DNA from: Escherichia coli
Lineage (GTDB): Bacteria; Pseudomonadota; Gammaproteobacteria; Enterobacterales; Enterobacteriaceae
Direction: 5' to 3' (one strand)
DNA length: 64,000 bases
NCBI RefSeq assembly: GCF_044324785.1
Contig: NZ_CP172127.1
The position numbers and the translations under genes are program-made. The notes under the pieces are model-generated. The model searched no databases. It was not told the DNA's origin and worked only from the letters and a program-made list of their open reading frames with translations. Each line of letters opens with the position of its first letter. Positions within the stretch are counted from its first letter, which is position 1. Shown piece by piece: positions 16,309 to 45,318 of this stretch.

Positions 16309-17051
16309 TTAGTTAGTTCAAACTCAAAGAGTGATGTATCGCCTTCTGTTATTATTTATCAATAAAACAGGGAAGACCTTATTGGTCGTCTGAAATCGAA
16401 GGTTATTCATTTTCGGATATTTACGAGATATTTAGATATGCAATTTAATCAAATTCGTGTTTCTACCAATTGTAGAGCACAATGCTATTACTAAATTTTC
16501 ATCACTATAAAAGAATCGGCTATAATATAAAGCGCAGTCAGGCATCATTAATCTCTATATTATTCACACAATCTATTTATCAAGTGAATTTGATAAATTC
16601 CTAATTTAAAATATTCACTATTAAGCCAGCGTCTAACGACGTTAAGATGGCAATGTGCAGATCATGTTATCAGGGTGGGGCGGTAGCGTATATTCCTTAT
16701 ACAAACCATCATTCATTTCAATAATATTTATTGAGTTATTTATTATTGTGAATAAAAAGACATTACAAATATTGGTTTAACTTTGCATATCAGGTGTTTT
16801 TTTGTTACTCGATGTAATATACGAGCCTGTCCTTAATAACATCGTGAACCCGTCAGTTGAGTTTGTGATTATTTTGTTGACTCAACAGCCCCCCGTTTCT
16901 CTGAAGTAAAATCCCGGACAAAATTCTCACATAACCATGACACTTTTCTGATATTCCCCGGTAACGCCTGAAGCCGGCCCGCTTATCTCATTACCCGACA
17001 TGTTGTACATGCAATATGTGCGGATTATTATTCATTTTCACGGAGGTTGCT

Positions 17052-18953: not shown

Positions 18954-18980
18954 TTCACTCAGATTAACAGGGAGTATTTT

Positions 18981-19442
18981 ATGCAGTTCACTTTTAATGA
19001 AGGTCATATTCAGCTGCCATCGCAATGGCAGGATCAGTCGATGCAGGTCCTGGTGTCCACAGATAACAGTGGCATCAACCTGGTCATTACCCGCGAACCC
19101 GTTCCACAGGGAACCCTGACACCAGAACTGTACCAGGAAACGCTGGCGCTGTACCAGGGCAAACTTGATGGGTACACCGAACATGCCTGCCGGGAAATCA
19201 CTCTGGCAGAGGCCCCGGCCTGGCTGCTGGATTATTCCTGGAACGGTCCGGAAGATGAAGGGAATCAGGGGCGGATTAGCCAGATAGCCGTATTCCAGCG
19301 GCGTGGAGATACGCTGCTGACCTTCACTTTCAGCACCTCCTTATCCCTGAAGAACAGTCAAAAGACGATGCTGCTGGAGGTGATAAAGAGCTTCACCCCG
19401 TTGCCACCGGAGAATGACATCCAAAAGGACCAGCCGCGCTGA
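18981..19442 (+). CDS. DUF1795/DcrB-fold Eag-type effector chaperone
   Basis: 153 aa. The N-terminus MQFTFNEGHIQLPSQWQDQSMQV is typical of Eag/DUF1795 proteins, and the gene sits between vgrG and a prePAAR effector. Confidence 0.8.
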   Translation: MQFTFNEGHIQLPSQWQDQSMQVLVSTDNSGINLVITREPVPQGTLTPELYQETLALYQGKLDGYTEHACREITLAEAPAWLLDYSWNGPEDEGNQGRISQIAVFQRRGDTLLTFTFSTSLSLKNSQKTMLLEVIKSFTPLPPENDIQKDQPR

Positions 19443-19461
19443 CATAAACGAGGGATAACAC

Positions 19462-22400: not shown

Positions 22401-24324
22401 CCTGGCAGAAGTCATCACCCCGGAAGGCAAAACGCAGTATGCGTATGACAAATCCGGCAGGCTGACGGGTATCTTCAGCCCGGACGGCACATCACAGCGC
22501 ACCGGCTACGACGAACGCGGGCGGGTGAATGTCACCACTCAGGGCAGACGGGCCATTGAGTACCACCACCCCGATGAACACACCGTTATCCGCTGTATCC
22601 TGCCACCGGAAGATGAACGCGACAGACACCCCGGTGAATCCCTGCTGAAAACCACCTACCGCTACAACGCCGCCGGAGAACTGACGGAGGTTATCCTGCC
22701 GGGGGATGAGACGCTGACGTTCAGCCGTGATGAGGCAGGACGTGAAGTGCTCCGGCACAGTAACCGGGGTTTTGCCTGTGAACAGGGCTGGAATGCAGCC
22801 GGTCAGCTTACCAGCCAGCGCGCCGGATTTTTCCCGGCGGAAGCCACATGGGGCGGACTGCTCCCCTCACTGGTGCGGGAGTACCGTTACGACAGCGCGG
22901 GCAATGTGTCGGCTGTCACCAGCCGGGAAGACTACGGACGGGAAACACGGCGGGAGTACCGGCTGGACCGGAACGGCCAGGTCACAACGGTGACAGCCTC
23001 AGGCACCGGGCTGGGCTATGGCGAAGGCGACGAGACTTATGGCTATGACAGCTGCGGCTACCTGAAGGCGCAGTCTGCGGGCAGGCACCGGATAAGTGAA
23101 GAGACTGACCAGTATGCCGGAGGCCACCGGCTGAAACAGGCCGGAAACACGCAGTATGACTATGACGCCGCAGGCCGGATGGTCAGCCGCACCAGACACC
23201 GTGACGGCTACCGCCCGGAAACAGAGCGGTTCCGGTGGGACAGCCGGGACCAGCTGACCGGGTATTGCAGCGCACAGGGGGAGCAGTGGGAATACCGCCA
23301 CGACGCCAGCGGCAGGCGGACGGAAAAACGCTGCGACCGGAAGAAAATCCGTTTTACGTACCTGTGGGACGGCGACAATATTGCGGAAATCCGGGAATAC
23401 CGCGATGATAAACTGTACAGCGTACGGCACCTGGTGTTTAACGGCTTTGAGCTGGTAAGCCAGCAGTGCAGCCGGGTACGGCAGGCGCATCCGTCCGTGG
23501 CCCCGCAGTGGGTGACGCGAACGAATTATGCGGTGAGCGACCTGACAGGCCGCCCGCTGATGCTCTTTAACAGTGAAGGTAAAACCGTCTGGCGGCCGGG
23601 ACAGACCAGCCTGTGGGGGCTGGCACTCAGCCTGCCCGCAGACACCGGCTACCCGGACCCGCGCGGGGAACTGGACCCGGAAGCCCCCCCCGGCCTGCTG
23701 TATGCGGGACAGTGGCAGGATACGGAATCGGGGCTGTGCTATAACCGGTTCCGGTATTACGAGCCGGAAACCGGAATGTACCTGGTGAGTGATCCGCTGG
23801 GGTTGCAGGGAGGTGAGCAGACTTACCGGTATGTGCCTAATCCTTGTGGGTATGTTGATCCGCTGGGGCTGGCAAAAACCAGTATTATAAAATCTTCTAC
23901 AGGCAAAATCCCACAAGGGTTAACAAAAAGCGAATTTGAGATTTTTTCAAAAAAATTAAAGGATGTATTAGCCCGAGAGGGAATCTCGACAGAGAATGTG
24001 TTTGTACATGGCAGTAGAGCCAGAGGAGATGCTGTATCAGGTGTTTCAGATATTGATATAAAAGTGATCCTTAGTGATAAAGATTTTGGTGCCTTTGCAG
24101 CAAGACGTATTGCTGAGTCCTCAGGAAGGACTCGAAATTTAATCAGGAAGGCCGTTGCTAAAAATCAAAAAATAAATTCAAGAGGAATTTCTAAAACTTT
24201 TGAATCTACTGTATGGGATGAGGTTTTCACTACCTTACCAAAAGGTGAGTTTTCAAGCATTCAAGTTTCTGTTATGACCAAAACTTCACCATTCAACACT
24301 AATCCGAGTATTATATTACCATGA
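19462..24324 (+). CDS. prePAAR/PAAR-Rhs T6SS effector with C-terminal nucleotidyltransferase-like toxin domain
   Basis: 1620 codons. Features in order: prePAAR-like AARLGDEIQH (19621-19650), hydrophobic helices, PAAR motifs (GKPAARA; NQPAARKGD), numerous YD repeats, and the core end DPLGLQGGEQTYRYVPNPCGYVDPLGL (ends 23871). An AT-rich 150-codon CT follows, containing HGSRARGDAVSGVSDIDIKV. Confidence 0.93.
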   Translation: MSEGPGGPQGATAGGTLAMRMLSQQAMVASQMKRAANDKAIAQMLASKKSGPPAARLGDEIQHKSFLGALAGAVLGAIVTIAEGCLIIAACATGPYALVLVPALMYASYKASDYVEEKQNQLESWINSFCDKDGAINTGSKNVNINGKPAARAAVTLPPPPLTEAIPSPPQGEPSWGDIATDLLESAAEKAVPLAKAWGNAVITLTDSNASFMDRLCAGTSLLFPYGPVLMEFATMVGGRGEIKKDVDFPEAGEDTALCDKETKPPRIAQGSSNVFINNQPAARKGDKLECSAAIVEGSPDVFIGGEQVTYLDIQPEFPPWQRMILGGITIASYLLPPAGLLGKMKNLARLGKLGNLLGKSGKLLGAKLGALLSRTKNALKNTYNVLKKFIKDPVDPVTGAYCDERTDFTLGQTLPLSFTRFHSSVLPLHGLTGVGWSDSWSEYAWVREQGNRVDIISQGATLYFAFDGDSDTAVNPYHAQYILRRRDDYLELFDRDALSSRFFYDAFPGMRLRHQVTGDTNDDRLAHSPGDRMYMLGGMSDTASNRITFERDSQYRITGVSHTDGIRLKLTYHASGYLKAIHRTDNGIQTLATYEQDERGRLTEADARLDYHLFYEYDDADRIIRWSDNDQTWSRFTYDAQGRCVTVTGAEGYYNATLDYGDGCTSVTDGKGIHRYYYDPDGNILREDAPDGSTTTYEWDEFHHLLARHSPAGRVEKFEYNAVHGQLSRYTAADGAVWQYRYDERGLLSNITDPAGQTWTQQCDERGLPVSLVSPQGEETRLAYTPQGLLSGIFRQDERRLGIEYDHHNRPETLTDVMGREHHTEYSGHDLPVKMRGPGGQSVRLQWQQHHKLSGLERAGTGAEGFRYDRHGNLLAYTDGNGVVWTMEYGPFDLPVARTDGEGHRWQYRYDKDTLQLTEVINPQGESYRYILDNCGRVTEERDWGGVVWRYRYDADGLCTARVNGLEETILYSRDAAGRLAEVITPEGKTQYAYDKSGRLTGIFSPDGTSQRTGYDERGRVNVTTQGRRAIEYHHPDEHTVIRCILPPEDERDRHPGESLLKTTYRYNAAGELTEVILPGDETLTFSRDEAGREVLRHSNRGFACEQGWNAAGQLTSQRAGFFPAEATWGGLLPSLVREYRYDSAGNVSAVTSREDYGRETRREYRLDRNGQVTTVTASGTGLGYGEGDETYGYDSCGYLKAQSAGRHRISEETDQYAGGHRLKQAGNTQYDYDAAGRMVSRTRHRDGYRPETERFRWDSRDQLTGYCSAQGEQWEYRHDASGRRTEKRCDRKKIRFTYLWDGDNIAEIREYRDDKLYSVRHLVFNGFELVSQQCSRVRQAHPSVAPQWVTRTNYAVSDLTGRPLMLFNSEGKTVWRPGQTSLWGLALSLPADTGYPDPRGELDPEAPPGLLYAGQWQDTESGLCYNRFRYYEPETGMYLVSDPLGLQGGEQTYRYVPNPCGYVDPLGLAKTSIIKSSTGKIPQGLTKSEFEIFSKKLKDVLAREGISTENVFVHGSRARGDAVSGVSDIDIKVILSDKDFGAFAARRIAESSGRTRNLIRKAVAKNQKINSRGISKTFESTVWDEVFTTLPKGEFSSIQVSVMTKTSPFNTNPSIILP
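21559..23844 (+). repeat. rhs core direct repeat, copy A (within the full-length rhs)
   Basis: Aligns with 27298-29583 at a constant offset of 5739 nt. The first ~80 nt are diverged and the rest is near-identical by eye. Confidence 0.9.
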
Positions 24325-24671
24325 AGAAAAAAGATATTAGATTTGCAATATCCATTAACTCCAACTTAAGTAAGATAGAATTAATGGAAAAAATTAAAAA
24401 TATAATCCCAGGGCTTATTGAAATAACTTCCAGTGCATTAAGAGAAGAAAAAAACATGGTAGTTATTGAAGAAAATGATCTTTATGACCCTATAAAAGCA
24501 GAGGGAGCTGATGGATGGATGTATTATAAATTCATATTATCCATATTCCCATTAAAGGGAGTGGAAACAACATTAGAATATCAACGGGAATTATCTTTTC
24601 TTTTCTTAAAGAAAATAAAAGATGCGGGCCTGTTGGGTGAACTTATATGCGAGGATGATTTTCATGACTGA
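24321..24671 (+). CDS. Presumptive cognate immunity protein of the Rhs NTase-like CT
   Basis: 116-codon AT-rich ORF whose ATG overlaps the rhs stop (ATGA), the usual Rhs CT/immunity arrangement. I recognise no motif in it. Confidence 0.7.
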   Translation: MKKKDIRFAISINSNLSKIELMEKIKNIIPGLIEITSSALREEKNMVVIEENDLYDPIKAEGADGWMYYKFILSIFPLKGVETTLEYQRELSFLFLKKIKDAGLLGELICEDDFHD

Positions 24672-24730
24672 TGACCTCTACATATATCCTCAGTTCGTGG
24701 CTGGTATTACATGATCTGACAGGGAAAGAT

Positions 24731-24880
24731 CGTGGCGAAATCAAAAAAGACGTGGATTTCCCGGAAGCCGGTGAGGACACGGCGCTCTGCGACAAGGAGA
24801 ACAAACCACCGAGGATAGCCCAGGGCAGCAGCAACGTCTTCATCAACAATCAGCCTGCCGCACGCAAAGGGGACAAACTG
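24731..24880 (+). pseudogene. 150-bp fragment of an rhs PAAR region
   Basis: Matches 20179-20328 of the main rhs (RGEIKKDVDFPEAGEDTALCDKE[N/T]KPPRIAQGSSNVFINNQPAARKGDKL). It is truncated on both sides and abuts the ISEc1 left end. Confidence 0.85.
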
Positions 24881-26171
24881 CAGGGAAAGATCACGTAACG
24901 CTGCTTTTTTGTACTAAATAATTCGCATTTTATGTTTAAAAATTGAGATATTCCTCATTACCTAAAGCTGTTTTTTATTGCTTATACATGATCAAATACT
25001 CCTTACATAATTAAGGAGAACAAAATGGAACTTAAAAAATTGATGGAACATATTTCTGTTATCCCCGATTACAGACAAGCATGGAAAGTAGAACATAAAT
25101 TGTCAGATATTCTACTGTTGACTATTTGCGCCGTCATTTGTGGTGCAGAAGGCTGGGAAGATATAGAGGATTTTGGTGAAACACATCTCGATTTTTTGAA
25201 GCAATATGGTGATTTTGAAAATGGTATTCCTGTCCACGATACCATTGCCAGAGTTGTATCCTGTATCAGTCCTGCAAAATTTCACGAGTGCTTTATTAAC
25301 TGGATGCGAGATTGCCATACTTCAGATGATAAAGACGTTATTGCAATCGATGGAAAAACACTCCGGCATTCTTATGACAAGAGTCGCCGCAGGGGAGCGA
25401 TTCATGTCATTAGTGCGTTCTCAACAATGCACAGTCTGGTCATCGGACAGATCAGGACGGATGAGAAATCTAATGAGATTACAGCTATCCCAGAACTTCT
25501 TAACATGCTGGATATTAAAGGAAAAATCATCACAACTGATGCGATGGGTTGCCAGAAAGATATTGCAGAGAAGATACAAAAACAGGGCGGTGATTATTTA
25601 TTCGCTGTAAAAGGAAATCAGGGGCGGCTTAATAAAGCCTTTGAGGAAAAATTCCCACTGAAAGAATTAAATAATCCAGAGCATGATAGTTACGCAATTA
25701 GTGAAAAGAGTCACGGCAGAGAAGAAATCCGACTTCATATTGTTTGCGATGTCCCTGATGAACTTATTGATTTCACGTTTGAATGGAAAGGGCTGAAGAA
25801 ATTATGCATAGCAGTCTCCTTTCGCTCAATAATAGCAGAGCAAAAGAAAGAGCCAGAAATGACGGTCAGATATTATATCAGTTCTGCTGATTTAAACACA
25901 GAAAAGTTCGCCACAGCAATCCGAAACCACTGGCACGTGGAGAATAAGCTGCACTGGCGTCTGGATGTGGTAATGAATGAAGACGACTGCAAAATAAGAA
26001 GAGGAAATGCAGCAGAATTATTTTCAGGGATACGGCACATCGCTATTAATATTTTGACGAATGATAAGGTATTCAAGGCAGGGTTAAGACGTAAGATACG
26101 AAAAGCAGCTATGGACAGAAACTACATGGCGTCAGTCCTTGCGGGGAGCGGGCTTTCGTAATCTTTCCCTG
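24881..26171 (+). mobile_element. ISEc1 (H-repeat, ISAs1 family), copy 1
   Basis: Imperfect terminal inverted repeats: cagggaaagatcacgtaacg on the left, and ...cgtaatctttccctg on the right. The element encloses the H-repeat-associated transposase ORF. Confidence 0.88.
25025..26161 (+). CDS. ISAs1-family (H-repeat-associated, YhhI-like) transposase
   Basis: 378 aa, [37 protein letters not shown]..., recognisable as the E. coli Rhs-associated H-rpt protein. AAGGAG SD upstream. Confidence 0.9.
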
Positions 26172-26396
26172 GACATGACGATTATTGTTCGTTCAAATCC
26201 GAGTAAAGCCGCTATTCTTGAAGAATTTTTACATGGTACACAAGAGAAACTAGGAATAGCTGAAAAATTAGGACGTTATGGACTAGGGAGTGCAGAAACG
26301 CACGTTAAGGATTTCATGATAAGACACAAAAAAATGCTTGGGTTATCTGATGAGGATGTAGCAATACTCAAAATATTGAAAGACAAGGGGTTGTGA
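26172..26396 (+). pseudogene. C-terminal stub of an orphan polymorphic-toxin CT, truncated by ISEc1
   Basis: The open frame starts exactly at the IS right end (…DMTIIVRSNPSKAAILEEFLHGTQEKLG…KDKGL). Its stop overlaps the next ATG (TGATG), as in toxin/immunity pairs. Confidence 0.55.
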
Positions 26397-26683
26397 TGAA
26401 TATAATTCTGCCGATAAAAGATATATTTATTATTGCGGGAAACATAGTTTTTAGCGTTTTATACAATGAACATATTGAGTTCCCATGCCGCTGCCAATTA
26501 CTATCTTCAAATTCTGAAGTTATGCAAGAGTTATATATTGAAAAAGAGTTATTTATTAAACGCACTACAGAAAATGATTGTCGTGCTTTAGTGTTAAGAG
26601 GAACATTGGAATACTTATTTGATGAAATTATTGCTGGCGATTGTGCATTGGCCTTATTACAAAAAGAAATAAAAAAAGATTAA
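26396..26683 (+). CDS. Presumptive orphan immunity protein 2
   Basis: 95-codon AT-rich ORF overlapping the upstream stub's stop by 1 nt. No recognisable motif. Confidence 0.55.
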   Translation: MNIILPIKDIFIIAGNIVFSVLYNEHIEFPCRCQLLSSNSEVMQELYIEKELFIKRTTENDCRALVLRGTLEYLFDEIIAGDCALALLQKEIKKD

Positions 26684-26699
26684 TCCAATATGTAGAACT

Positions 26700-26905
26700 G
26701 GACAATACCCATCTTTTAACAATGAACTTCGTAATTTTTATCTTAGAAATAATGCTACATTATATGAGGTATATCATGAAGTAATTCATGCCAAGCAATT
26801 TGCGAAAATATTTCTATCGGAGGTGCTGATGCACCATCTAATATGAGACTTATGGATATAATGACACATACAACTCATCATAAATATTACAGGCCTTGGG
26901 AATGA
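26700..26905 (+). pseudogene. Decayed orphan toxin CT with HExxH (zinc-metallopeptidase-like) motif
   Basis: One frame reads ...NELRNFYLRNNATLYEVYHEVIHAKQFAKI... and stops at 26844. Another frame, open from 26780, continues ...GGADAPSNMRLMDIMTHTTHHKYYRPWE* to 26905. This is consistent with a 1-nt frameshift near the A-run at ~26804. There is no rhs core upstream. Confidence 0.6.
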
Positions 26906-27264
26906 TAAATAAAATAGTGAAAAAAATGTTGGTTTCATATAGCCCTAAGAAACCGGAGTCTAGGGGCGGGGATTTTGTTATTCCGTTGTTTTTTAATGAG
27001 AAAGTTTCTTTTTTTAGCATAAAAAGTGGCAAGCCAGTGCGATATGGTCTTATGGTATTTACAGGGAAAGTAATTACCATAGATGATATTCTTAGTAAAG
27101 TTCGTTTTCCTGATGTTATGAATGAGCAAAATATTCAACCGTTAATTGACTTTATTAATAACATTAGCGATTTTAAAATAGGGGATGTTATTGAAATTGA
27201 TGATAATGGTAAATTGAAAGTTGTGCCAAAATCAGCAGGACACCCTGTGAGTAAATTGCCATGA
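26902..27264 (+). CDS. Presumptive orphan immunity protein 3
   Basis: 120-codon ORF from the ATG at 26902, overlapping the stub stop as ATGA. AT-rich, with no recognisable motif. Confidence 0.55.
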   Translation: MINKIVKKMLVSYSPKKPESRGGDFVIPLFFNEKVSFFSIKSGKPVRYGLMVFTGKVITIDDILSKVRFPDVMNEQNIQPLIDFINNISDFKIGDVIEIDDNGKLKVVPKSAGHPVSKLP

Positions 27265-27297
27265 TACTTAAGGGGCCTGATTTTCTGTTTTTGCCAG

Positions 27298-29583
27298 TGG
27301 GACGAATACCATCACCTGCTGGCGAGGCTGTCTCCGGCAGGACGGCTGGAAAAGTTTGACTATCATCTGACACTCGGTCAGTTAAGCCGTTACACGGCGG
27401 CAGACGGCGCGGAGTGGCAGTACCGCTATGATGAGCGCGGCCTGCTCAGCAACATCACCGACCCTGCCGGGCAGACGTGGACACAGCAGTGCGATGAACG
27501 CGGCCTGCCGGTGAGTCTGGTGTCGCCACAGGGCGAAGAGACCCGGCTGGCGTACACCGCTCAGGGGCTGCTGTCGGGGATATTCCGCCAGGATGAACGG
27601 CGTCTGGGCATAGAGTACGACCACCACAACCGGCCGGAAACACTCACCGACGTGATGGGCCGTGAACACCACACCGAATACAGCGGTCACGACCTGCCGG
27701 TGAAGATGCGCGGCCCCGGCGGTCAGTCAGTGCGCTTACAGTGGCAGCAGCACCATAAACTGAGCGGCATTGAACGTGCTGGAACCGGCGCGGAAGGATT
27801 TCGCTATGACCGCCACGGCAACCTGCTGGCCTGGACGGACGGCAACGGTGTTGACTGGACAATGGAATACGGCCCGTTTGATTTGCCGGTGGCGCGAACG
27901 GACGGTGAAGGCCACCGCTGGCAGTACCGCTACGATAAAGACACGCTGCAACTGACAGAAGTCATCAATCCGCAGGGCGAGTCATACCGTTATATTCTCG
28001 ACAACTGTGGGCGGGTGACGGAAGAGCATGACTGGGGCGGCGTGGTCTGGCGTTACCGCTATGACGCCGATGGTCTGTGTACCGCCAGGGTTAACGGCCT
28101 GGAGGAAACCATCCTCTACAGCCGGGACGCCGCAGGCCGCCTGGCAGAAGTCATCACCCCGGAAGGGAAAACGCAGTATGCGTATGACAAATCCGGCAGG
28201 CTGACGGGTATCTTCAGCCCGGACGGCACATCACAGCGCACCGGCTACGACGAACGCGGGCGGGTGAATGTCACCACTCAGGGCCGACGGGCCATTGAAT
28301 ACCACCACCCCGATGAACACACCGTCATCCGCTGTATCCTGCCACCGGAAGATGAACGCGACAGACACCCCGGTGAATCCCTGCTGAAAACCACCTACCG
28401 CTACAACGCCGCCGGAGAACTGACGGAGGTTATCCTGCCGGGGGATGAGACGCTGACGTTCAGCCGTGATGAGGCAGGACGTGAAGTGCTCCGGCACAGT
28501 AACCGGGGTTTTGCCTGTGAACAGGGCTGGAATGCAGCCGGTCAGCTTACCAGCCAGCGCGCCGGATTTTTCCCGGCGGAAGCCACATGGGGCGGACTGC
28601 TCCCCTCACTGGTGCGGGAGTACCGTTACGACAGCGCGGGCAATGTGTCGGCTGTCACCAGCCGGGAAGACTACGGACGGGAAACACGGCGGGAGTACCG
28701 GCTGGACCGGAACGGCCAGGTCACAACGGTGACAGCCTCAGGCACCGGGCTGGGCTATGGCGAAGGCGACGAGACTTATGGCTATGACAGCTGCGGCTAC
28801 CTGAAGGCGCAGTCTGCGGGCAGGCACCGGATAAGTGAAGAGACTGACCAGTATGCCGGAGGCCACCGGCTGAAACAGGCCGGAAACACGCAGTATGACT
28901 ATGACGCCGCAGGCCGGATGGTCAGCCGCACCAGACACCGTGACGGCTACCGCCCGGAAACAGAGCGGTTCCGGTGGGACAGCCGGGACCAGCTGACCGG
29001 GTATTGCAGCGCACAGGGGGAGCAGTGGGAATACCGCCACGACGCCAGCGGCAGGCGGACGGAAAAACGCTGCGACCGGAAGAAAATCCGTTTTACGTAC
29101 CTGTGGGACGGCGACAATATTGCGGAAATCCGGGAATACCGCGATGATAAACTGTACAGCGTACGGCACCTGGTGTTTAACGGCTTTGAGCTGGTAAGCC
29201 AGCAGTGCAGCCGGGTACGGCAGGCGCATCCGTCCGTGGCCCCGCAGTGGGTGACGCGAACGAATTATGCGGTGAGCGACCTGACAGGCCGCCCGCTGAT
29301 GCTCTTTAACAGTGAAGGTAAAACCGTCTGGCGGCCGGGACAGACCAGCCTGTGGGGGCTGGCACTCAGCCTGCCCGCAGACACCGACTACCCGGACCCG
29401 CGCGGGGAGCTGGACCCGGAAGCCGACCCCGGCCTGCTGTATGCAGGACAGTGGCAGGATACGGAATCAGGGCTGTGCTATAACCGGTTCCGGTACTACG
29501 AGCCGGAAACCGGAATGTACCTGGTGAGTGATCCGCTGGGGTTGCAGGGGGGTGAGCAGACTTACCGGTATGTGCCGAATCCT
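27298..29583 (+). repeat. rhs core direct repeat, copy B (orphan)
   Basis: See copy A. The offset is 5739 nt, and homology ends at the codon after the shared ...VPNP. Confidence 0.9.
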
Positions 29584-30051
29584 TTAAGATATAAAGATTT
29601 CTATGGGCTTAGTAAGAGTTCAATAATAACGAGAGGAAAGAATGCTGGTCATGGCTATGCAGCCAGCGTTACACCTGGAGGCAAAGGTACGGTGTTGGCT
29701 GGTCACGGAGGATCAAAATTTGGCGATAAAATGATTATACCAGAAGGCGTATCGATAACGATGCCGAGAGATGGTATTAAAATATCAGATATGACTGGAA
29801 AATTACTGGAATCTGGTAATGTGGATGATATAATTAAAGCTGCAAGTAATAATCCTCGTGTAGCTAGCGATCTTGAAGGTTGGGTTACTTATTTGCCCGG
29901 CACTGAAATCCCTGATTATATTTTAAAACCACCCACCAATCTTAACATACTGGAAAATTCAGTAACGGTGAACACTTCAACTTATTTATCTCAAATGGTA
30001 AATGCTGGTCAAGGTAATGTAATCTGGGCTGCATGCACCGAATTTTTTTAA
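27298..30051 (+). pseudogene. Orphan 5'-truncated rhs core with an intact alternative CT toxin domain
   Basis: The frame is open stop-to-stop from 27265 with no plausible start or N-terminal PAAR region. 27298-29583 parallels the main rhs core. It diverges after ...YRYVPNP into a distinct AT-rich 155-codon CT (LRYKDFYGLSKSSIITRGKNAGHGY...VIWAACTEFF). Confidence 0.85.
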
Positions 30052-30065
30052 CGCGGGGTAATCGT

Positions 30066-30548
30066 ATGTATTTTAAAGATGATACTGACTATACATATTT
30101 CCTTCCTAATGAATATTTTTTACACGGGGTGAAAAATGTGGGCTGGATAGACAGAGAACACCCCTTCACAAAAGGGATTAGTGACGCTGAATTTATTGAA
30201 AAGTTAAAAGCAATAATTCTAACAGAGAATGAAGCAACTTGTTTTTCAGTTAATAAAATAAGAGGATTTCACAAATGTAATTTTTGCAATAGTGAAATGA
30301 TAACAATAACCGATGGAAGAAAAAAAGGATACCTTGGCATGAGTGAAATATGGATTCCATCCATCCACCATAATGAGTATTACGCGTTTCCTTCATTAAT
30401 TTTCCATTATATAACATCTCACATGTATAGACCACCAGAGGACTTTATTGTATCTGTTTTAAACTTGAATTTAAGCGAGAGTTTTTGCGCTCAAAACATA
30501 TATGACAATAAAATTAAGGAATTAAAAATAGACTTCTGGTTTCGTTAA
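30066..30548 (+). CDS. Presumptive immunity protein of the orphan Rhs CT
   Basis: 160-codon AT-rich ORF from the ATG at 30066, 15 nt after the orphan rhs stop. It contains HKCNFCNSE. The annotated start at 30033 would overlap the toxin end and was not used. Confidence 0.6.
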   Translation: MYFKDDTDYTYFLPNEYFLHGVKNVGWIDREHPFTKGISDAEFIEKLKAIILTENEATCFSVNKIRGFHKCNFCNSEMITITDGRKKGYLGMSEIWIPSIHHNEYYAFPSLIFHYITSHMYRPPEDFIVSVLNLNLSESFCAQNIYDNKIKELKIDFWFR

Positions 30549-30568
30549 AGCTGGTAATTTAACTTATC

Positions 30569-30665
30569 GGGAATACCGCTATGATGGCAGTTTCAGACGG
30601 ACGGAGAAATGCTGTCAGCAAAAAGACTTCCGCTTCGCGTATCTGTGGGGCATGGGGATAATTTA
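30569..30665 (+). pseudogene. Diverged rhs core scrap
   Basis: Reads (W)EYRYDGSFRRTEKCCQQKDFRFAYLWG, paralleling WEYRHDASGRRTEKRCDRKKIRFTYLWDG of the main rhs (around 23286-23385) but clearly more diverged. Confidence 0.6.
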
Positions 30666-30732
30666 TCTTCATCAATTGATATATTGATTAATGGCAAGGA
30701 GGCCATTGAAATTCCGTAAGGCCAACTTGATA

Positions 30733-30914
30733 TGACGCCTGGCACACAGCCCCGGTGACCGGATGTATATGCTGGGCGGGATGAGCGACACCGCCAGCAA
30801 CCGCATCACGTTTGAGCGCGACAGCCAGTACCGGATCACGGGTGTCAGTCACACCGACGGGATCCGGCTTAAACTGACGTACCACGCCAGCGGCTACCTG
30901 AAAGCCATTCACCG
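30733..30914 (+). pseudogene. rhs core fragment (N-proximal part of the core) truncated by an IS end
   Basis: Matches 21036-21217 of the main rhs (LAHSPGDRMYMLGGMSDTASNRITFERDSQYRITGVSHTDGIRLKLTYHASGYLKAIHR). It ends at an H-repeat left terminus. Confidence 0.8.
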
Positions 30915-31023
30915 CAGGGAAAGATCACGTAACGCTGCTTTTTTGTACTAAGCAATTCGCATTTTATGTTCAGTATTTGAGATACTCCTTATAACACAAA
31001 CCTGTTTTTCATAGCTTATATAT
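30915..31023 (+). mobile_element. Solo, diverged H-repeat/ISEc1 left-end fragment
   Basis: Starts with cagggaaagatcacgtaacgctgcttttttgtacta, like the IS left end, then diverges from the canonical copy. It is cut off by the next complete copy. Confidence 0.7.
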
Positions 31024-32315
31024 GTAGGAAAAGATCACGTAACGCTCCTTTTTTGTACTAAATAATTCGCATTTTATGTTTAAAAATTGAGATATTCCTC
31101 ATTACCTAAAGCTGTTTTTTATTGCTTACACATGATCAAATACTCCTTACATAATTAAGGATAACAAAATGTAACTTAAAAAATTGATGGAACATATTTC
31201 TATTATCCCCGATTACAGACAAGCCTGGAAAGTGGAACATAAATTATCGGATATTCTACTGTTGACTATTTGTGCCGTTATTTCGGGTGCAGAAGGTTGG
31301 GAAGATATAGAGGATTTTGGGGAAACACATCTCGATTTTTTAAAACAATATGGTGATTTTGAAAATGGTATTCCTGTTCACGATACCATTGCCAGAGTTG
31401 TATCCTGTATCAGCCCTGCAAAATTTCACGAGTGCTTTATTAACTGGATGCGAGATTGCCATACTTCAGATGATAAAGACGTCATCGCAATTGATGGAAA
31501 AACACTCCGGCATTCTTATGGCAAGAGTCGCCGCAGGGGAGCGATTCATGTCATTAGTGCGTTCTCAACAATGCACAGTCTGGTCATCGGACAGATCAGG
31601 ACGGATGAGAAATCCAATGAAATTACAGCTATCCCTGAACTTCTTAACATGCTGGATATTAAAGGAAAAATCATCACAACTGATGCAATGGGTTGCCAGA
31701 AAGATATTGCAGAGAAGATACAAAAACAGGGCGGTGATTATTTATTCGCTGTAAAAGGAAATCAGGGGCGGCTTAATAAAGCCTTTGAGGAAAAATTTCC
31801 ACTGAAAGAATTAAATAATCCAGAGCATGACAGTTACGCCATTAGTGAAAAGAGTCACGACAGAGAAGAAATCCGTCTTCATATTGTTTGCGATGTCCCT
31901 GATGAACTTATTGATTTCACGTTTGAATGGAAAGGACTGAAGAAATTATGCGTGGCAGTCTCCTTTCGGTCAATAATAGCAGAACAAAAGAAAGAGCCAG
32001 AAATGACGGTCAGATATTATATCAGTTCTGCTGATTTAACCGCAGAGAAGTTCGCCACAGCAATCCGAAACCACTGGCACGTGGAGAATAAGCTGCACTG
32101 GCGTCTGGACGTGGTAATGAATGAAGACGACTGCAAAATAAGAAGAGGAAATGCAGCAGAATTATTTTCAGGGATACGGCACATCGCTATTAATATTTTG
32201 ACGAATGATAAGGTATTCAAGGCAGGGTTAAGACGTAAGATGCGAAAAGCAGCCATGGACAGAAACTATCTCGCGTCAGTCCTTGCTGGGAGCGGGCTTT
32301 CGTAATCTTTCCCTG
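31024..32315 (+). mobile_element. ISEc1 (H-repeat, ISAs1 family), copy 2
   Basis: The left end taggaaaagatcacgtaacg has 2 mismatches to copy 1. The right end ...cgtaatctttccctg finishes at 32315. Same length class as copy 1. Confidence 0.85.
31187..32305 (+). CDS. ISAs1-family transposase, copy 2, N-terminally compromised
   Basis: The canonical start has ATG-TAA (31169-31174) where copy 1 has ATG-GAA, and the SD is AAGGAT rather than AAGGAG. The frame is otherwise intact from the internal ATG at 31187 ([15 protein letters not shown]...). Confidence 0.6.
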
Positions 32316-32502
32316 CGTTAACCGCCCCTCCTTGACACCACGCTTTTGTCTACATTCTACGCAAACGGCAACTTTTATAACCAGTGTAAAAATAACGTGC
32401 CGCAATAGTCATACCTATTAATGGTAAAAAGCTGTCACAATTCATAAAAAACCTTAATATACGCCACCCTAAACATAACCAGCGTTAATGTAAGGTTTTT
32501 GT

Positions 32503-39579: not shown

Positions 39580-39624
39580 TGGCGCGCCCTGCAGGATTCG
39601 AACCTGCGGCCCACGACTTAGAAG
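39580..39624 (-). pseudogene. pauD: argU-derived pseudo-tRNA fragment (prophage attachment-site remnant)
   Basis: The reverse complement cttctaagtcgtgggccgcaggttcgaatcctgcagggcgcgcca equals the anticodon loop through the CCA end of tRNA-Arg(UCU) argU as I recall it. The 5' half of the tRNA is absent. Confidence 0.85.
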
Positions 39625-40046: not shown

Positions 40047-41000
40047 ATGCGGGCGAAACTTCTGGGAATAGTCCTGACAACCCCTATTGCGATCAGCTCT
40101 TTTGCTTCTACCGAGACTATATCGTTTACTCCTGACAACATAAATGCGGACATTAGTCTTGGAACTCTGAGCGGAAAAACAAAAGAGCGCGTTTATCTAG
40201 CTGAAGAAGGAGGCCGAAAAGTCAGTCAACTCGACTGGAAATTCAATAACGCTGCAATTATTAAAGGTGCAATTAATTGGGATTTGATGCCCCAGATATC
40301 TATTGGGGCTGCGGGCTGGACTACTCTCGGCAGCCGGGGTGGCAATATGGTCGATCAGGACTGGATGGATTCCAGTAACCCCGGAACCTGGACAGATGAA
40401 AGTAGGCACCCTGATACACAACTCAATTATGCTAACGAATTTGATCTGAATATCAAAGGCTGGCTCCTCAACGAACCCAATTACCGCCTGGGACTCATGG
40501 CCGGATATCAGGAAAGCCGTTATAGCTTTACAGCCAGAGGTGGTTCCTATATCTACAGTTCTGAGGAGGGATTCAGAGATGATATCGGCTCCTTCCCGAA
40601 TGGAGAAAGAGCAATCGGCTACAAACAACGTTTTAAAATGCCCTACATTGGCTTGACTGGAAGTTATCGTTATGAAGATTTTGAACTCGGTGGCACATTT
40701 AAATACAGCGGCTGGGTGGAATCATCTGATAACGATGAACACTATGACCCGGGAAAAAGAATCACTTATCGCAGTAAGGTCAAAGACCAAAATTACTATT
40801 CTGTTGCAGTCAATGCAGGTTATTACGTAACACCTAACGCAAAAGTTTATGTTGAAGGCGCATGGAATCGGGTTACGAATAAAAAAGGTAATACTTCACT
40901 TTATGATCACAATGATAACACTTCAGACTACAGCAAAAATGGTGCAGGCATAGAAAACTATAACTTCATCACTACTGCTGGTCTTAAGTACACCTTTTAA
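40047..41000 (+). CDS. ompT: Outer-membrane protease OmpT (omptin)
   Basis: 317 aa, MRAKLLGIVLTTPIAISSFASTE...TTAGLKYTF, recognisable as OmpT. GGAGA SD. Confidence 0.96.
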   Translation: MRAKLLGIVLTTPIAISSFASTETISFTPDNINADISLGTLSGKTKERVYLAEEGGRKVSQLDWKFNNAAIIKGAINWDLMPQISIGAAGWTTLGSRGGNMVDQDWMDSSNPGTWTDESRHPDTQLNYANEFDLNIKGWLLNEPNYRLGLMAGYQESRYSFTARGGSYIYSSEEGFRDDIGSFPNGERAIGYKQRFKMPYIGLTGSYRYEDFELGGTFKYSGWVESSDNDEHYDPGKRITYRSKVKDQNYYSVAVNAGYYVTPNAKVYVEGAWNRVTNKKGNTSLYDHNDNTSDYSKNGAGIENYNFITTAGLKYTF

Positions 41001-41019
41001 CAACGTTAAATAGATTTTC

Positions 41020-41056
41020 TCCCCGGTGGTATTGTATCGCCCCGGGGAATTTGTTT
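41020..41056 (+). terminator. Possible terminator after ompT
   Basis: A 7-bp GC stem, tccccgg...ccgggga, with a 15-nt loop, followed by atttgttt. Confidence 0.45.
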
Positions 41057-41230
41057 ACCGTTAAGAGCAACAATATCCCCTAAACTTGTAAGCATTTAAC
41101 CTGCCTCCTAACGTGTAAGCTCTTACCACAACACTAGACTCAATATATTCAAATTCGCTATGCCGTGACATCATTTAACACCTTGTAATTCATCGCCATA
41201 ATTGATTTAATTCACAAATAAAACTATAAC

Positions 41231-41899
41231 ATGGTGAAATTGATGAAAAAAAACACAGATGATGGGGCTAAAATTTACACACCACTTACCCTAAAGCTTT
41301 ATGACTGGTGGGTTTTGGGAGTATCAAATCGGCTTGCATGGGGATGTCCTACAAAGGAACACCTTCTTCCACACTTTCTGGAACATTTAGGTAACAACCA
41401 TCTGGATATTGGTGTTGGAACTGGGTTTTACCTTACTCACGTACCTGAGAGTAGTCTGATATCTTTAATGGATTTGAACGAAGCTAGCCTGAACGCGGCA
41501 TCTACAAGGGCTGGGGAATCAAAAATTAAACATAAAATTAGCCATGATGTTTTTGAACCTTATCCCGCGGCGTTACATGGCCAATTTGATTCCATTTCCA
41601 TGTTTTACCTTCTTCACTGCCTGCCTGGAAATATATCTACAAAAAGCTGTGTAATACGCAATGCGGCGCAGGCCTTAACTGACGATGGAACTCTATACGG
41701 AGCCACAATTCTTGGCGATGGAGTTGTGCACAATAGCTTCGGTCAAAAACTGATGCGCATTTACAATCAGAAAGGCATCTTTTCAAACACAAAAGATTCC
41801 GAAGAAGGCTTAACACATATACTCTCAGAGCATTTCGAGAATGTTAAAACCAAGGTTCAAGGTACTGTAGTAATGTTTTCCGCTTCAGGGAAAAAATAG
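41231..41899 (+). CDS. Class I SAM-dependent methyltransferase (prophage cargo)
   Basis: 222 aa with motif I LDIGVGTG and post-I LMDLNE. An alternative start exists at 41243. It may correspond to the DLP12 ybcY methyltransferase, but I cannot confirm that from memory. Confidence 0.75.
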   Translation: MVKLMKKNTDDGAKIYTPLTLKLYDWWVLGVSNRLAWGCPTKEHLLPHFLEHLGNNHLDIGVGTGFYLTHVPESSLISLMDLNEASLNAASTRAGESKIKHKISHDVFEPYPAALHGQFDSISMFYLLHCLPGNISTKSCVIRNAAQALTDDGTLYGATILGDGVVHNSFGQKLMRIYNQKGIFSNTKDSEEGLTHILSEHFENVKTKVQGTVVMFSASGKK

Positions 41900-42403
41900 C
41901 ATCCAACCGCAGCACGTTCTTGCATACGCCGTGTCTGCGGTTTAATTTTCACTCTCAAATATTGTAGTTAAGTACAATCATGATTCTTTGGACTATATAA
42001 ATTTTCTTGTAATTAGTTCTTTAGCCGAAATTTTAAAACAATTATTTATTCAAGGGATGGACTCTATTAGGAACTATCTCAAAAACATGAATAACCACCA
42101 TCTTACGATTGAATTATTTTACAGAGTATTCTTATTGAGAAAAACAACAGCAGGTACACCAAATAATATAGAAATGTAAATTTAGGTTCATTAATCTTTT
42201 GAGTTACAACCTAAACTTTCCGTTAATCACTAAGATATCAATAGATTATACTCACTGAGCGCACGTTTTTTACAATTATTATTTCTCACATCAAAATGCG
42301 CATACCAATCTGTTATTTGACACTTTCTTATTTGTTACTAGAGTTAATTGGGTGCTGACAAGGCACATGTTATTTACAATTTGAAAATCAGAGGAGAAAT
42401 GAT

Positions 42404-42586
42404 ATGACCGAACATCGTGGCGGTGCAGGTAATTTCGCTGAAGATCGACAAAAAGCTTCTGACGCTGGTCGTAAAGGCGGCCAACATAGTGGCGGTAATT
42501 TTAAAAACGATCCACAAAGAGCATCAGAAGCAGGGAAAAAAGGTGGTCAGAATAGCCATGGTGGCGGCCGTAAATCTGACTCTTAA
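42404..42586 (+). CDS. YciG-like KGG-repeat general stress protein
   Basis: 60 aa, MTEHRGGAGNFAEDRQKASDAGRKGGQHSGGNFKNDPQRASEAGKKGGQ..., very close to K-12 YciG as I recall it. GAGGAG SD. Confidence 0.88.
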   Translation: MTEHRGGAGNFAEDRQKASDAGRKGGQHSGGNFKNDPQRASEAGKKGGQNSHGGGRKSDS

Positions 42587-42664
42587 TTTATTACCCCCTA
42601 CATTCGTGAATAACTGAAGCTAACTGCGAGCCTACGGGCTCGCAGTGAAAACTCTGGAGTGATT

Positions 42665-43165
42665 ATGCAAATTAAATCTGTTGAAGATATCTTCATCCAC
42701 TTATTATCGGATACATACAGCGCTGAGAAACAACTAACAAAGGCACTGTCTAAACTTAGTCGCTCTGCATATAGTGATAAATTAACCGCTGCTTTTCAGT
42801 CACATCTTGATGAGACACATGGTCAAATTGAACGCATCGATCAGGTTGTTGATTCTGAAGATGGTCTTAAATTGAAAAGAATTAAGTGTGCCGCAATGGA
42901 AGGACTTATCGAAGAGGCGAATGAGGTAATTGAAAGCACTGATAAAAATGAAGTACGTGATGCAGCATTGATTGCTGCAGCACAAAAAGTAGAGCACTAT
43001 GAAATTGCCAGTTATGGCACTTTGGTAACACTCGCTGAGCAATTAGGATATAAAAAAGCGGCTAAACTCCTGAAAGAAACACTGGAAGAGGAAAAAGCTA
43101 CTGATGTCAAATTAACAGATCTGGCATTTAATAACGTTAATAAAAAAGCTCAGGATAACTCCTGA
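42665..43165 (+). CDS. YciF-like DUF892 ferritin-like stress protein
   Basis: ATG at 42665 (GGAG 7 nt upstream) gives MQIKSVEDIFIHLLSDTYSAEKQLTKAL..., recognisable as a YciF homologue. Confidence 0.88.
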   Translation: MQIKSVEDIFIHLLSDTYSAEKQLTKALSKLSRSAYSDKLTAAFQSHLDETHGQIERIDQVVDSEDGLKLKRIKCAAMEGLIEEANEVIESTDKNEVRDAALIAAAQKVEHYEIASYGTLVTLAEQLGYKKAAKLLKETLEEEKATDVKLTDLAFNNVNKKAQDNS

Positions 43166-43201
43166 ACTATAGACTTCAATTTCTTTTAGGATAAACAGAT
43201 T

Positions 43202-43708
43202 ATGAATAGAATTGAACATTACCATGACTGGCTTCGTGATGCACATGCGATGGAGAAACAAGCTGAAAAAATGCTTGAGTCTATGGCCAGCCGGATAGAA
43301 AACTATCCAGAGTTACGTTCCAGAATTGAGCAGCACATTAGCGAAACAAAGAACCAGCTTTCACAGCTTGAAAGCATACTTGATCGTAATAATATTTCGC
43401 GCTCTGTCATTAAAGACTCTATGAGTCAAATGGCCGCGTTTGGGCAATCCATTGGTGGAATTTTTCCATCTGATGAAATTGTCAAAGGTTCGATCAGTGG
43501 CTATGTGTTCGAACAATTTGAAATTGCGTGTTACACATCTCTTCTCGCAGCAGCCAAAAATGCGGGTGATACAGCCTCAGTACCCATTATTGAAGCAATT
43601 CTTAATGAAGAAAAACAAATGGCTGAATGGCTTCTTAACCATATTCCTGACACCACTGAACAATTCATGGTCAGATCTGAAATTGATGGAGTTGAAGCCA
43701 AAAAATAA
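43202..43708 (+). CDS. YciE-like DUF892 ferritin-like stress protein
   Basis: 168 aa, MNRIEHYHDWLRDAHAMEKQAEKMLESMASRIENYPEL..., recognisable as a YciE homologue. Confidence 0.88.
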   Translation: MNRIEHYHDWLRDAHAMEKQAEKMLESMASRIENYPELRSRIEQHISETKNQLSQLESILDRNNISRSVIKDSMSQMAAFGQSIGGIFPSDEIVKGSISGYVFEQFEIACYTSLLAAAKNAGDTASVPIIEAILNEEKQMAEWLLNHIPDTTEQFMVRSEIDGVEAKK

Positions 43709-43726
43709 TTCTTTTGAGGAGGCATT

Positions 43727-44617
43727 ATGTTTAGACACGTGAAAAAACTTCAATATACAGTACGTGTAAGTGAGCCAAACCCAGGCTTGGCTAATCTACT
43801 TTTAGAACAATTCGGCGGGCCACAGGGTGAGCTTGCAGCAGCATGCCGATACTTCACTCAAGGCTTAAGTGATGAAGATGCAGGCCGAAGGGATATGCTG
43901 ATGGACATAGCAACAGAAGAACTAAGTCATCTCGAAATTATTGGTTCTCTTGTTGGTATGCTCAACAAAGGTGCAAAAGGAGCACTTGCTGAAGGAACTG
44001 AGAATGAAGCTGAGCTTTACCGTTCCTTAACTCAAAATGGCAATGACAGCCATATAACTTCTCTCCTCTACGGAGGAGGCCCAGCATTAACTAATTCAGC
44101 TGGAGTACCCTGGACTGCAGCTTATGTTGATACTATTGGCGAAGTCACGGCCGATCTTCGTTCAAATATTGCAGCTGAAGCTCGGGCAAAGATCATTTAC
44201 GAACGTCTCATTAATGTTACTGATGATCCTGGAGTAAAAGACACTCTGGCATTTTTAATGACCAGGGAAGCAGCACACATGCTTTCATTTGAAAAAGCAT
44301 TACATTCAATTCGTAACACCTTTCCACCAGGGAAATTACCACCAATTGAGAAATACAAAAACGTATATTACAACATGTCAGAAGGTGAAGACGTCAGAGG
44401 TAGTTGGAACAGTGATGAAAACTTTGACTATGTTTCCGATCCAGTTCCAGCGGTTGACGGTGGGGATGGGAAGGCCTCGATAAATCTTTCGACCAAGCAA
44501 GAAGCTATGATAAAAGCTATGGCAACAAGGTTGAAATCCCATGAAGACATCAATCCTGTCACTGGCGCTGAGCTTGCTGAAGGAGAACCACAAACAAAGA
44601 TAAATAGTAAAAACTAA
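43727..44617 (+). CDS. Manganese (non-haem) catalase, KatN-like
   Basis: 296 aa with Mn-catalase-type sequence (...GELAAACRYFTQG..., ATEELSHLEIIG, AAEARAKIIYERL). It is the fourth gene after yciG/F/E homologues, as in the Salmonella yciGFE-katN operon. Confidence 0.82.
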   Translation: MFRHVKKLQYTVRVSEPNPGLANLLLEQFGGPQGELAAACRYFTQGLSDEDAGRRDMLMDIATEELSHLEIIGSLVGMLNKGAKGALAEGTENEAELYRSLTQNGNDSHITSLLYGGGPALTNSAGVPWTAAYVDTIGEVTADLRSNIAAEARAKIIYERLINVTDDPGVKDTLAFLMTREAAHMLSFEKALHSIRNTFPPGKLPPIEKYKNVYYNMSEGEDVRGSWNSDENFDYVSDPVPAVDGGDGKASINLSTKQEAMIKAMATRLKSHEDINPVTGAELAEGEPQTKINSKN

Positions 44618-44705
44618 TTATCTTCTGGTATTTAGCTATCCCTCATAAGTTAATTGCCGCTGAGATATCCTAAGCTCTAGCCTCTGAAAATACATTTATA
44701 TTTCG

Positions 44706-44737
44706 AAGCCCGCGATATTTTAAGCGGGCTTTTATTT
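44706..44737 (+). terminator. Rho-independent terminator of the yciGFE-katN-like operon
   Basis: Hairpin aagcccgc-gatattttaa-gcgggctt followed by ttatttt. It abuts the convergent tfa stop. Confidence 0.7.
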
Positions 44738-45318
44738 TAAACTTCTGGTATTACAGGCCACTCAATATCAGGTGCAGTTGATGTATCAACACGGTTCAGC
44801 AACACCCGATACTTCTTCCAGGCTTCCAGCAACGAGTTTTCTTCCTCCGTTGCGATCTCCAGATCTACAGCATCCTGAAGTGGCGCAATATGCTCACTGG
44901 CTACCTGCATCAGGCTGTTTTTTGTTTCTTCCACCTCCCGGATCCGGAACAGTTTTTCTGCTTCTGCATCTTTCACCCAGGCTGTGCCGTTCCACTTCTG
45001 AAACTCCCCTTCCGGCGATAACCAGGTAACATTTTCCGGTAACGGACCGAGTTCAGAAATAAATAACGCGTCCCCTGACGCTACGTCATAAACCGTTTTA
45101 CCCCGATGATCTTCAACGAGATGCCACGATGCCTCATCACTGTTGAAAACAGCCACGAAGCCTGCCGGAATATCTGGCGGTGCAATATCGGTACTGTTTG
45201 CTGGCAGACCTGTATGAGGCGGAATATATGCATCACCTTCACCAATAAATTCATTAGTTCCGGCCAGCAGATTATAAATTTTTATGGTCCGTGGTTGTTC
45301 ACTCATTCTGAATGCCAT
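44737..45318 (-). CDS. tfa: Tail fibre assembly protein Tfa (lambda-type)
   Basis: 193 aa, [48 protein letters not shown]..., recognisable as lambda Tfa. Confidence 0.93.

Follow-up and report, generated by a model that had tools for sequence, protein, structure and literature searches.

Our analysis of a 64,000-nt stretch of an Escherichia coli genome (contig NZ_CP172127.1 of RefSeq assembly GCF_044324785.1; hereafter the window, at its full length) revealed that the six genes between positions 40,047 and 44,737 are cargo within a lambda-like prophage integrated at argU, the DLP12 site. These genes encode the outer-membrane protease OmpT, a class I S-adenosylmethionine (SAM) methyltransferase, homologs of YciG, YciF and YciE, and a 296-aa manganese catalase, KatN; each of these identities, proposed in an earlier note on this DNA, was confirmed by the NCBIfam and Pfam profile searches through which gene families were assigned. 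The best overall explanation, to which we attach a probability of about 0.88, is that the block is the cargo end of a DLP12-type lambdoid prophage, equivalent to the b region of lambda. Two of its components have been described before: ompT as cargo of DLP12 is the standard K-12 annotation, and the stress and catalase operon is the known yciGFE-katN unit of prophage CP-933X of O157:H7, here in a different and apparently more complete prophage.

Prophage setting of the cargo block

The six open reading frames (ORFs), all on the + strand and opposite to the late operon, sit between the right attachment site (attR) and the convergent tail fiber assembly gene tfa, the last late gene (44737..45318, - strand; Pfam Caudo_TAP, 1.2e-43), an arrangement that agrees with the earlier description. 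The attR core (39580..39624, - strand), previously noted as an att remnant, consists of 45 nt identical, in reverse complement, to the tRNA-Arg gene argU of strain SCU-104 at its 3' end; it lies between envY and ompT, and is the right end of a lambdoid prophage at the DLP12 site. Because all six genes lie between this copy of the argU 3' end and tfa, they are inside the prophage. In SCU-104 and A17, the two closest complete genomes, the cargo block forms the end of a 46-kb lambdoid prophage with argU-intD at its other end (argU-intD...tfa-katN..methyltransferase-ompT-attR). SCU-104 is 99.9% identical to the window over the cargo, A17 is 99% identical over positions 40343-64000, and the 46-kb prophage of A17 is free of structural pseudogenes.

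The same boundary appears in other lambdoid elements. In the K-12 annotation DLP12 begins at argU and ends between ompT and envY, so that ompT is included, and in phage 2G7b the homologous point adjoins the int gene. The right end of K-12 DLP12 (tfaD-ybcY-tfaX-appY-ompT-attR) shares with the window the argU attachment site, an OmpT with 99.4% identity, a methyltransferase module with 97% nucleotide identity, and the convergent orientation of tfa and the methyltransferase gene. It differs in that ybcY is a pseudogene, tfaX and appY separate the methyltransferase from ompT, the head and tail genes have been lost, and only 29 nt stand where the window holds a 2.8-kb insertion with katN. The earlier statement that appY stands beside ompT in K-12 and is missing here agrees with this comparison. 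Among phages, 2G7b, ev243, Turner, Kati and the PhiR series have the order int-attP-ompT-(alpha/beta-hydrolase)-methyltransferase beside their tail fiber genes, given in full for 2G7b as int-(attP)-ompT-alpha/beta-hydrolase-tfa remnant-methyltransferase-tail fiber genes. In these active lambdoid phages OmpT is at least 99% identical to that of the window and the methyltransferase module 98% identical, but none carries yciGFE-katN.

The yciGFE-katN moron

The four stress genes lie in a 2808-nt insertion (41947..44754, + strand), hereafter the moron, which was delimited by blastn comparison with K-12, 2G7b, EDL933 and Evo1, with breakpoints at 41946/41947 and 44754/44755. It replaces the 29-nt spacer between the methyltransferase gene and tfa in K-12 DLP12 and phage 2G7b, and has a guanine-plus-cytosine (GC) fraction of 0.39, against 0.55 in nfrA and 0.56 in tail gene J. 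The last six codons and the stop codon of tfa (44737-44754) fall inside moron-specific sequence, homology to the K-12 and 2G7b tfa genes beginning only at 44755; the insertion has therefore supplied tfa with a different C-terminal tail and with the terminator that it now shares with katN.

The first gene of the moron (42404..42586) encodes a YciG-like, 60-aa general stress protein with KGG repeats (Pfam KGG, 1.1e-16), and is followed by genes for a YciF-like (42665..43165) and a YciE-like (43202..43708) ferritin-like protein of the DUF892 family (3.2e-54 and 2.2e-50, respectively) and by katN (43727..44617), whose product is a di-manganese, non-heme catalase (Pfam Mn_catalase PF05067, 5.4e-87). 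The intergenic gaps are 78, 36 and 18 nt. KatN matches PF05067 over residues 1-270 with 291.8 bits (cut-off 27), and scores 167 bits with the NCBIfam ManCatBAC equivalog (cut-off 350), which places it outside that particular subfamily; its relatives in the PDB are Anabaena KatB (4e-47) and the Mn catalases of Lactobacillus plantarum (4.7e-35) and Thermus thermophilus. All predicted manganese ligands are present (E35, E65, H68, E151 and H184), and their spacings of 3 and 33 residues match those of the L. plantarum enzyme, whose ligands we take to be E35/E66/H69/E148/H181. The YciF-like protein conserves the metal-site residues Q54, E113 and E143, which are those mutated in Salmonella YciF; that protein binds iron, and its ferroxidase activity requires these residues, E143 being the bridging one (bioRxiv 10.1101/2023.01.20.524870). 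A 63-aa ORF with a TTG start in the AT-rich part of the moron (41988-42179) was treated as spurious.

Comparison of related elements shows that the cargo end as a whole is modular, with ompT, then a hydrolase, appY or nothing, then the methyltransferase, then the katN operon or nothing, and finally tfa. In the window nothing extra stands between ompT and the methyltransferase gene; in O157 and 2G7b this interval holds an alpha/beta-hydrolase gene and a tfa remnant, and in K-12 it holds tfaX and appY. In strain A39 both appY and the katN operon are found.

Promoter, terminators and predicted control

Upstream of yciG the moron contains a putative AT-rich regulatory region (41947..42403, + strand; 457 nt, 29% GC) with a candidate promoter of the sigma-S type. 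A promoter scan (10/12) located a -35 element, TTGACA, at 42317-42322 and, after a 16-nt spacer, a -10 element, TAGAGT, at 42339-42344. Features of the sigma-S consensus are a C at -13 and TAA after the -10 hexamer; this promoter has C at -13 and TAA at -6 to -4, a signature read from the sequence alone. The core TTGAC..CTA...TTAA is invariant in seven aligned yciG upstream regions (the window, K-12, two Salmonella subspecies, Enterobacter, Klebsiella and Leclercia), beyond which their sequences are unrelated.

The earlier note gave the cargo genes their own Shine-Dalgarno sequences and terminators, and was right that they have expression signals of their own. The Shine-Dalgarno sequences are visible for ompT, yciG, yciF and katN, and as GGTGA before the ATG at 41243 of the methyltransferase gene. 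As had been claimed, terminator-like hairpins, each with a U-tract behind it, stand 3' of both ompT and the catalase gene. That after ompT (approximately 41020-41047) has a folding energy of -26.6 kcal/mol (z = -4.6); that after katN (44705-44732), followed by UUUUAUUUU, is bidirectional and common to katN and tfa. A further 10-bp hairpin 3' of yciG (42623-42646) is strong and has no U-tract, and a terminator hairpin also follows the methyltransferase gene (41905-41942).

We therefore read the block as three morons (ompT, the methyltransferase gene and the katN operon), each transcribed on its own and expressed while the prophage is repressed. The katN operon would be transcribed from the conserved promoter, with its sigma-S features, that precedes yciG; during growth H-NS would silence it via the upstream region of 29% GC, and in stationary phase sigma-S would turn it on. 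Its predicted output is a hydrophilin-like YciG, two di-iron, ferritin-like proteins of the ferroxidase type (YciF and YciE) and the di-manganese catalase, which together may limit damage driven by iron and H2O2. OmpT, expressed separately, is an aspartyl-type protease of the outer membrane that cuts cationic peptides.

Relation to the O157:H7 and Salmonella operons

The proteins encoded beside tfa in O157:H7 strain EDL933 are essentially those of the window: the methyltransferase and the YciG-like and YciF-like proteins are 100% identical, the YciE-like protein differs in one residue (99.4%) and the catalase in two of 296 (99.3%). The EDL933 region CP-933X, or O-island 52, has the same gene order, in the same place distal to tfa and with the same methyltransferase before the operon, and in both strains ompT and lom belong to the same prophage end. 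The two differ in that the prophage of the window is at argU whereas the O157 copy is at the CP-933X site; the window lacks the alpha/beta-hydrolase gene, the tfa remnant and the ISEc8 that part ompT from the methyltransferase in O157; and the prophage type of the window looks structurally complete in the related A17, whereas CP-933X is called cryptic.

The EDL933 operon has been characterized experimentally. Z1922, Z1923 and Z1924, genes of CP-933X / O-island 52, are 35-, 64- and 137-fold RpoS-dependent, and EDL933 expresses both of its yciGFE copies (Dong and Schellhorn 2009, PMC2907692). Z1921 was named KatN by Wan et al. (2017, PMC5363993), who measured 268.3 U/mg for the purified enzyme, stated explicitly that katN is in an operon with z1922-z1924 on CP-933X and is homologous to the Salmonella yciGFEkatN, and published a role for it in H2O2 tolerance and macrophage survival. 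In that work on enterohemorrhagic E. coli (EHEC), RpoS was indispensable for the transcription of katN, OxyR stimulated it and H-NS repressed it approximately 450-fold; a katN deletion mutant was sensitive to 1-2 mM H2O2 in plain broth. The suggestion of the earlier note that this lysogenic-conversion combination is not known to have been studied is wrong: O157:H7 has an identical arrangement beside tfa (methyltransferase-yciGFE-katN-tfa-stf-lom, with ompT not far away), and this agrees with what has been published on Z1921-Z1924 of CP-933X. Most of the checks that had been asked for (RpoS dependence, catalase activity and H2O2 survival) have therefore already been done, on a copy that is essentially identical. 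Conservation of the manganese ligands, the YciF metal residues and the promoter core supports carrying these results over to the window, and we infer that control by RpoS, OxyR and H-NS as well as catalase activity would hold in this strain too.

The order yciG-yciF-yciE-catalase had been recognized as that of Salmonella, and the Salmonella locus (trpA-yciG-yciF-yciE-katN-ompW) bears this out: it has the same four genes in the same order, with a conserved -35/-10 core upstream of yciG, and it is cited as sigma-S dependent (Robbe-Saule 2001; Beraud 2010). Identity to the window is 84% for KatN, 88% for YciG, 80% for YciF and 82% for YciE. In Salmonella these genes stand on the chromosome, with trpA and ompW on either side, whereas the operon of the window is in a prophage, and the Salmonella sequence upstream of the core is unrelated to that of the window, so that YncC/McbR control cannot be assumed.

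Distribution, second copy and origin

Of 5426 complete E. coli genomes, 381 (7%) carried the moron, always on the chromosome; among the matches listed, roughly four fifths are the O157:H7 allele. In 318 of the 381 carriers the whole 9.9-kb region from ompT to lom is in one place. The moron stands directly distal to tfa at three or more attachment sites, which include argU (SCU-104 and A17), a second site in O157 and O8:H8, and bio-ybhB, the lambda attachment site, in Evo1. Prophages with katN were found in a rectal isolate from a healthy student and in isolates from an otter, a baboon, a pig and a native rodent. The published statement that katN is lacking from non-pathogenic E. coli (PMC5363993) is therefore too strong, because commensal and wildlife isolates carry the moron.

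The operon of the prophage is a second copy of yciGFE, additional to the chromosomal one, which was found in 4735 of the 5426 genomes. In K-12, yciG-yciF-yciE stand between trpA and ompW and katN is missing, confirming the statement in the earlier note that this strain has the three genes at another locus and lacks the catalase. The near-identical SCU-104 has both the chromosomal yciEFG, beside trpA, and the prophage copy, and EDL933 expresses both of its copies. The prophage proteins are 83% (YciG), 80% (YciF) and 87.5% (YciE) identical to those of K-12, and nucleotide identity between the prophage and chromosomal yciGFE is 74-77%. At this distance the two sets are old paralogs, and a recent duplication of the chromosomal genes was rejected. 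As a separate observation, SCU-104 (NZ_CP053284.1, 2,140,032-2,193,469) has a second lambdoid prophage, inserted in ompW beside the chromosomal yciEFG and with an ompW fragment at its far end; its cargo beyond the tail fibers consists of a YadA-like adhesin and a 1341-aa peptidase of the S6 family (SPATE-like).

A scan for the origin of the moron, with one genome per species, recovered the order yciG-yciF-yciE-katN in Salmonella, Enterobacter, Klebsiella, Leclercia and Phytobacter; it is widespread in Enterobacteriaceae, at varied loci. No close chromosomal donor was found in this species scan, in which the best match had 86-87% protein identity. These best KatN relatives are from Kosakonia, Phytobacter and Yokenella, and their YciF and YciE are just 64-68% identical to those of the window; in the operons of Salmonella, Enterobacter and Klebsiella, identity is 80-92% throughout. 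The genus Escherichia proper was not among the best 80 species genomes.

ompT and the ybcY-type methyltransferase

ompT (40047..41000, + strand) encodes an omptin (Pfam Omptin; NCBIfam NF008222, 707 bits against a cut-off of 537) with 315 of 317 residues identical to K-12 OmpT (99.4%). The catalytic residues D103, D105, D230 and H232 (precursor numbering) are kept; they correspond to the omptin pairs Asp83/Asp85 and Asp210/His212 of the mature protein. The gene is near-universal at the nfrA-ybcH-(envY) position, and 13 phage genome records, 2G7b, ev243, Turner, Kati and the PhiR series among them, encode OmpT with at least 99% identity as well as the methyltransferase.

The methyltransferase gene belongs to a module (41148..41946, + strand), delimited by blastn breakpoints, that is common to K-12 ybcY, phage 2G7b and many E. 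coli, and was present in 3856 of the 5426 complete genomes. The coding sequence extends from 41231, or more likely 41243, to 41899 (+ strand; Pfam Methyltransf_12/23/25). The true start is probably the ATG at 41243, which would give a protein of 218 aa and make the annotated 222-aa product (WP_000239881.1) four codons too long: Met5 is invariant in 26 homologs, the PHROG profile of the phage family begins at Met5, and the GGTGA Shine-Dalgarno sequence is 6 nt upstream of this ATG. Homologs are widespread in Enterobacterales and have never been given a specific name, and a literature search for ybcY found no functional data.

An AlphaFold (AF2) model of the methyltransferase, built from 26 homologs, was confident (pLDDT 89.7). 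Foldseek searches of the PDB placed it nearest to phosphatidylethanolamine (PE) N-methyltransferase, juvenile-hormone acid methyltransferase (JHAMT), NodS, the phosphoethanolamine enzyme PfPMT and natural-product methyltransferases, and the top 50 matches were all small-molecule, lipid, natural-product or uncharacterized methyltransferases; the nearest PDB entries by sequence were UbiG and JHAMT. Neither the motif IV of DNA methylases, (D/N/S)PP(Y/F/W), nor the C5 motif PCQ was found when the sequence was scanned. A role as DNA methylase was rejected on the missing motif and on fold neighbors that are small-molecule and lipid enzymes, and the model suggests that the substrate is probably a small molecule or lipid. 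The earlier note had proposed methylome analysis to find the target of this enzyme; with such a substrate the more likely one, this would be the wrong test and unlikely to find it. The top Foldseek match, PE N-methyltransferase, was not adopted as an assignment, as dozens of unrelated small-molecule methyltransferases score almost equally.

Alternative explanations

Several observations weigh against parts of the explanation preferred here, a lambdoid prophage with a functional stress operon at its cargo end. Gene order, together with the description in the literature, is the basis on which the EDL933 genes beside tfa were equated with Z1924-Z1921 of CP-933X, and expression, RpoS dependence and activity in the present strain are extrapolated from O157:H7. 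The moron of the window differs from the O157 allele by 3% of its nucleotides, partly in the regulatory region, and may therefore be regulated differently. The katN operon was not found in any complete sequenced phage in a search of 50,697 phage records, and its mobility in a viable phage is therefore hypothetical; the only KatN matches above 60% in this collection (tblastn) were two unannotated records of 1.6 and 2.2 kb at 84%, which we read as fragments with a Salmonella-type katN rather than phage genomes. The fold matches of the methyltransferase are generic, with TM scores of approximately 0.6, 14-21% identity and nearly equal E-values. An EHEC katN deletion mutant was as virulent as the wild type in mice (PMC5363993), and katN may contribute little to fitness, or its contribution may duplicate that of KatE, KatG and AhpC. 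Finally, secretion of KatN through a type VI secretion system (T6SS) is the claim of one laboratory, and a later transcriptome study found phagosomes without T6SS induction.

One alternative is that these genes belong to the host chromosome, as a core or ancestral stress island beside which a prophage happens to lie. The near-universal position of ompT, the chromosomal yciGFE of most genomes (4735 of 5426) and the lack of the katN operon in free phage records might suggest as much, but the argU 3' repeat is outside ompT, and the 13 phage records have their ompT (at least 99% identical) and methyltransferase genes beside int. The katN moron, moreover, is always directly distal to tfa, at three attachment sites, occurs in just 7% of genomes, and with 74-77% nucleotide identity to the chromosomal yciGFE is not a recent local duplication. 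We consider this alternative highly improbable. It is also improbable, to a lesser degree, that the operon is a xenogeneically silenced passenger without selectable function that hitch-hikes on the prophage. Strong induction by RpoS in EDL933 (PMC2907692), intact active-site residues and a conserved promoter core argue for maintained function; the four proteins are 99-100% identical although their DNA differs by approximately 3%, which implies that most changes are silent or non-coding; and the only signs of disrupted copies among the matches listed are an IS903B insertion in the catalase gene (strain fS54a) and one match to half of the query. The upstream region of 29% GC, the approximately 450-fold repression by H-NS and the wild-type virulence of the deletion mutant in mice (both PMC5363993), and the redundancy with chromosomal yciGFE, katE and katG would nonetheless be as expected of such a passenger.

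The remaining alternative concerns function rather than location, namely that KatN is mainly an exported T6SS effector that detoxifies host H2O2 in macrophages, with the other operon genes as bystanders. T6SS-dependent secretion and translocation of KatN and lower levels of reactive oxygen species in macrophages have been reported (PMC5363993), and a vgrG-PAAR-Rhs island at 17016-24324 of the window makes a T6SS in this strain probable. However, KatN has no recognizable effector or adaptor domain, the only domains found being Mn_catalase and a sub-threshold COQ7 match; the deletion mutant is sensitive to H2O2 even in plain broth (PMC5363993); T6SS-2 was not induced in phagosomes in the later study; and no linkage of katN to vgrG or hcp was seen, its neighbors being yciE and tfa and the vgrG-Rhs island being unrelated and 19 kb away. 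Because KatN lacks an effector marker and travels with cytoplasmic, ferritin-like partners, at varied loci in many Enterobacteriaceae, we regard T6SS export as a reported addition to its role and not as its core function, and this alternative as unlikely.

Other features of the window

The 16-kb island that contains vgrG lies between cusS and nfrB (16296-32360) and is absent from SCU-104. It includes vgrG (17016-18953), a gene for a DcrB-like protein of 153 aa (18981-19442), a gene for a 1620-aa PAAR-DUF6531-RHS toxin (19462-24324), two transposases of the ISAs1 type (25025-26161 and 31184-32305), and, at 27511-30548, an orphan Rhs fragment of 846 aa that carries an Stv domain and precedes a DUF7919 gene. 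The island resembles an auxiliary T6SS cluster of the vgrG-rhs type with a displaced toxin tip.

An Rfam scan found no RNA families inside the cargo block. Within the 3' part of tfa, a full-length match to the candidate small-RNA family IS009 (RF02111) was detected at 44777-44975 (- strand), with 227.9 bits against a gathering score of 117; this match may merely reflect the conserved tfa sequence that defined the family. Near the start of the window, tandem matches to the sok antisense RNA (RF01794) at 1431-1585 and 1933-2089 (- strand; 83.7 and 77.9 bits) imply two adjacent, putative type I toxin-antitoxin loci of the hok/sok type.

Implications

The block is a classic example of how prophage morons supply E. 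coli with envelope and stress functions. Its pieces were already annotated, and the catalase operon was already characterized experimentally in O157:H7; what our analysis adds is the bookkeeping of exact breakpoints, a modular cargo end, three attachment sites together with commensal and wildlife carriers, and the absence of a close chromosomal donor from the species scan. Two further suggestions are more tentative. It may be that an intact and inducible lambdoid phage of the A17 type, integrating at argU, carries the katN operon, which we hold as a possibility, though a rather doubtful one. Less likely than this, the ybcY-type methyltransferase may be a phage-encoded lipid N-methyltransferase of the PE type that remodels the host envelope. 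If the operon does travel in such a phage, a sigma-S-controlled module of manganese catalase and ferroxidases would be spreading by lysogenic conversion among commensal and wildlife E. coli, and would not be merely a fossil in the cryptic CP-933X of O157:H7.

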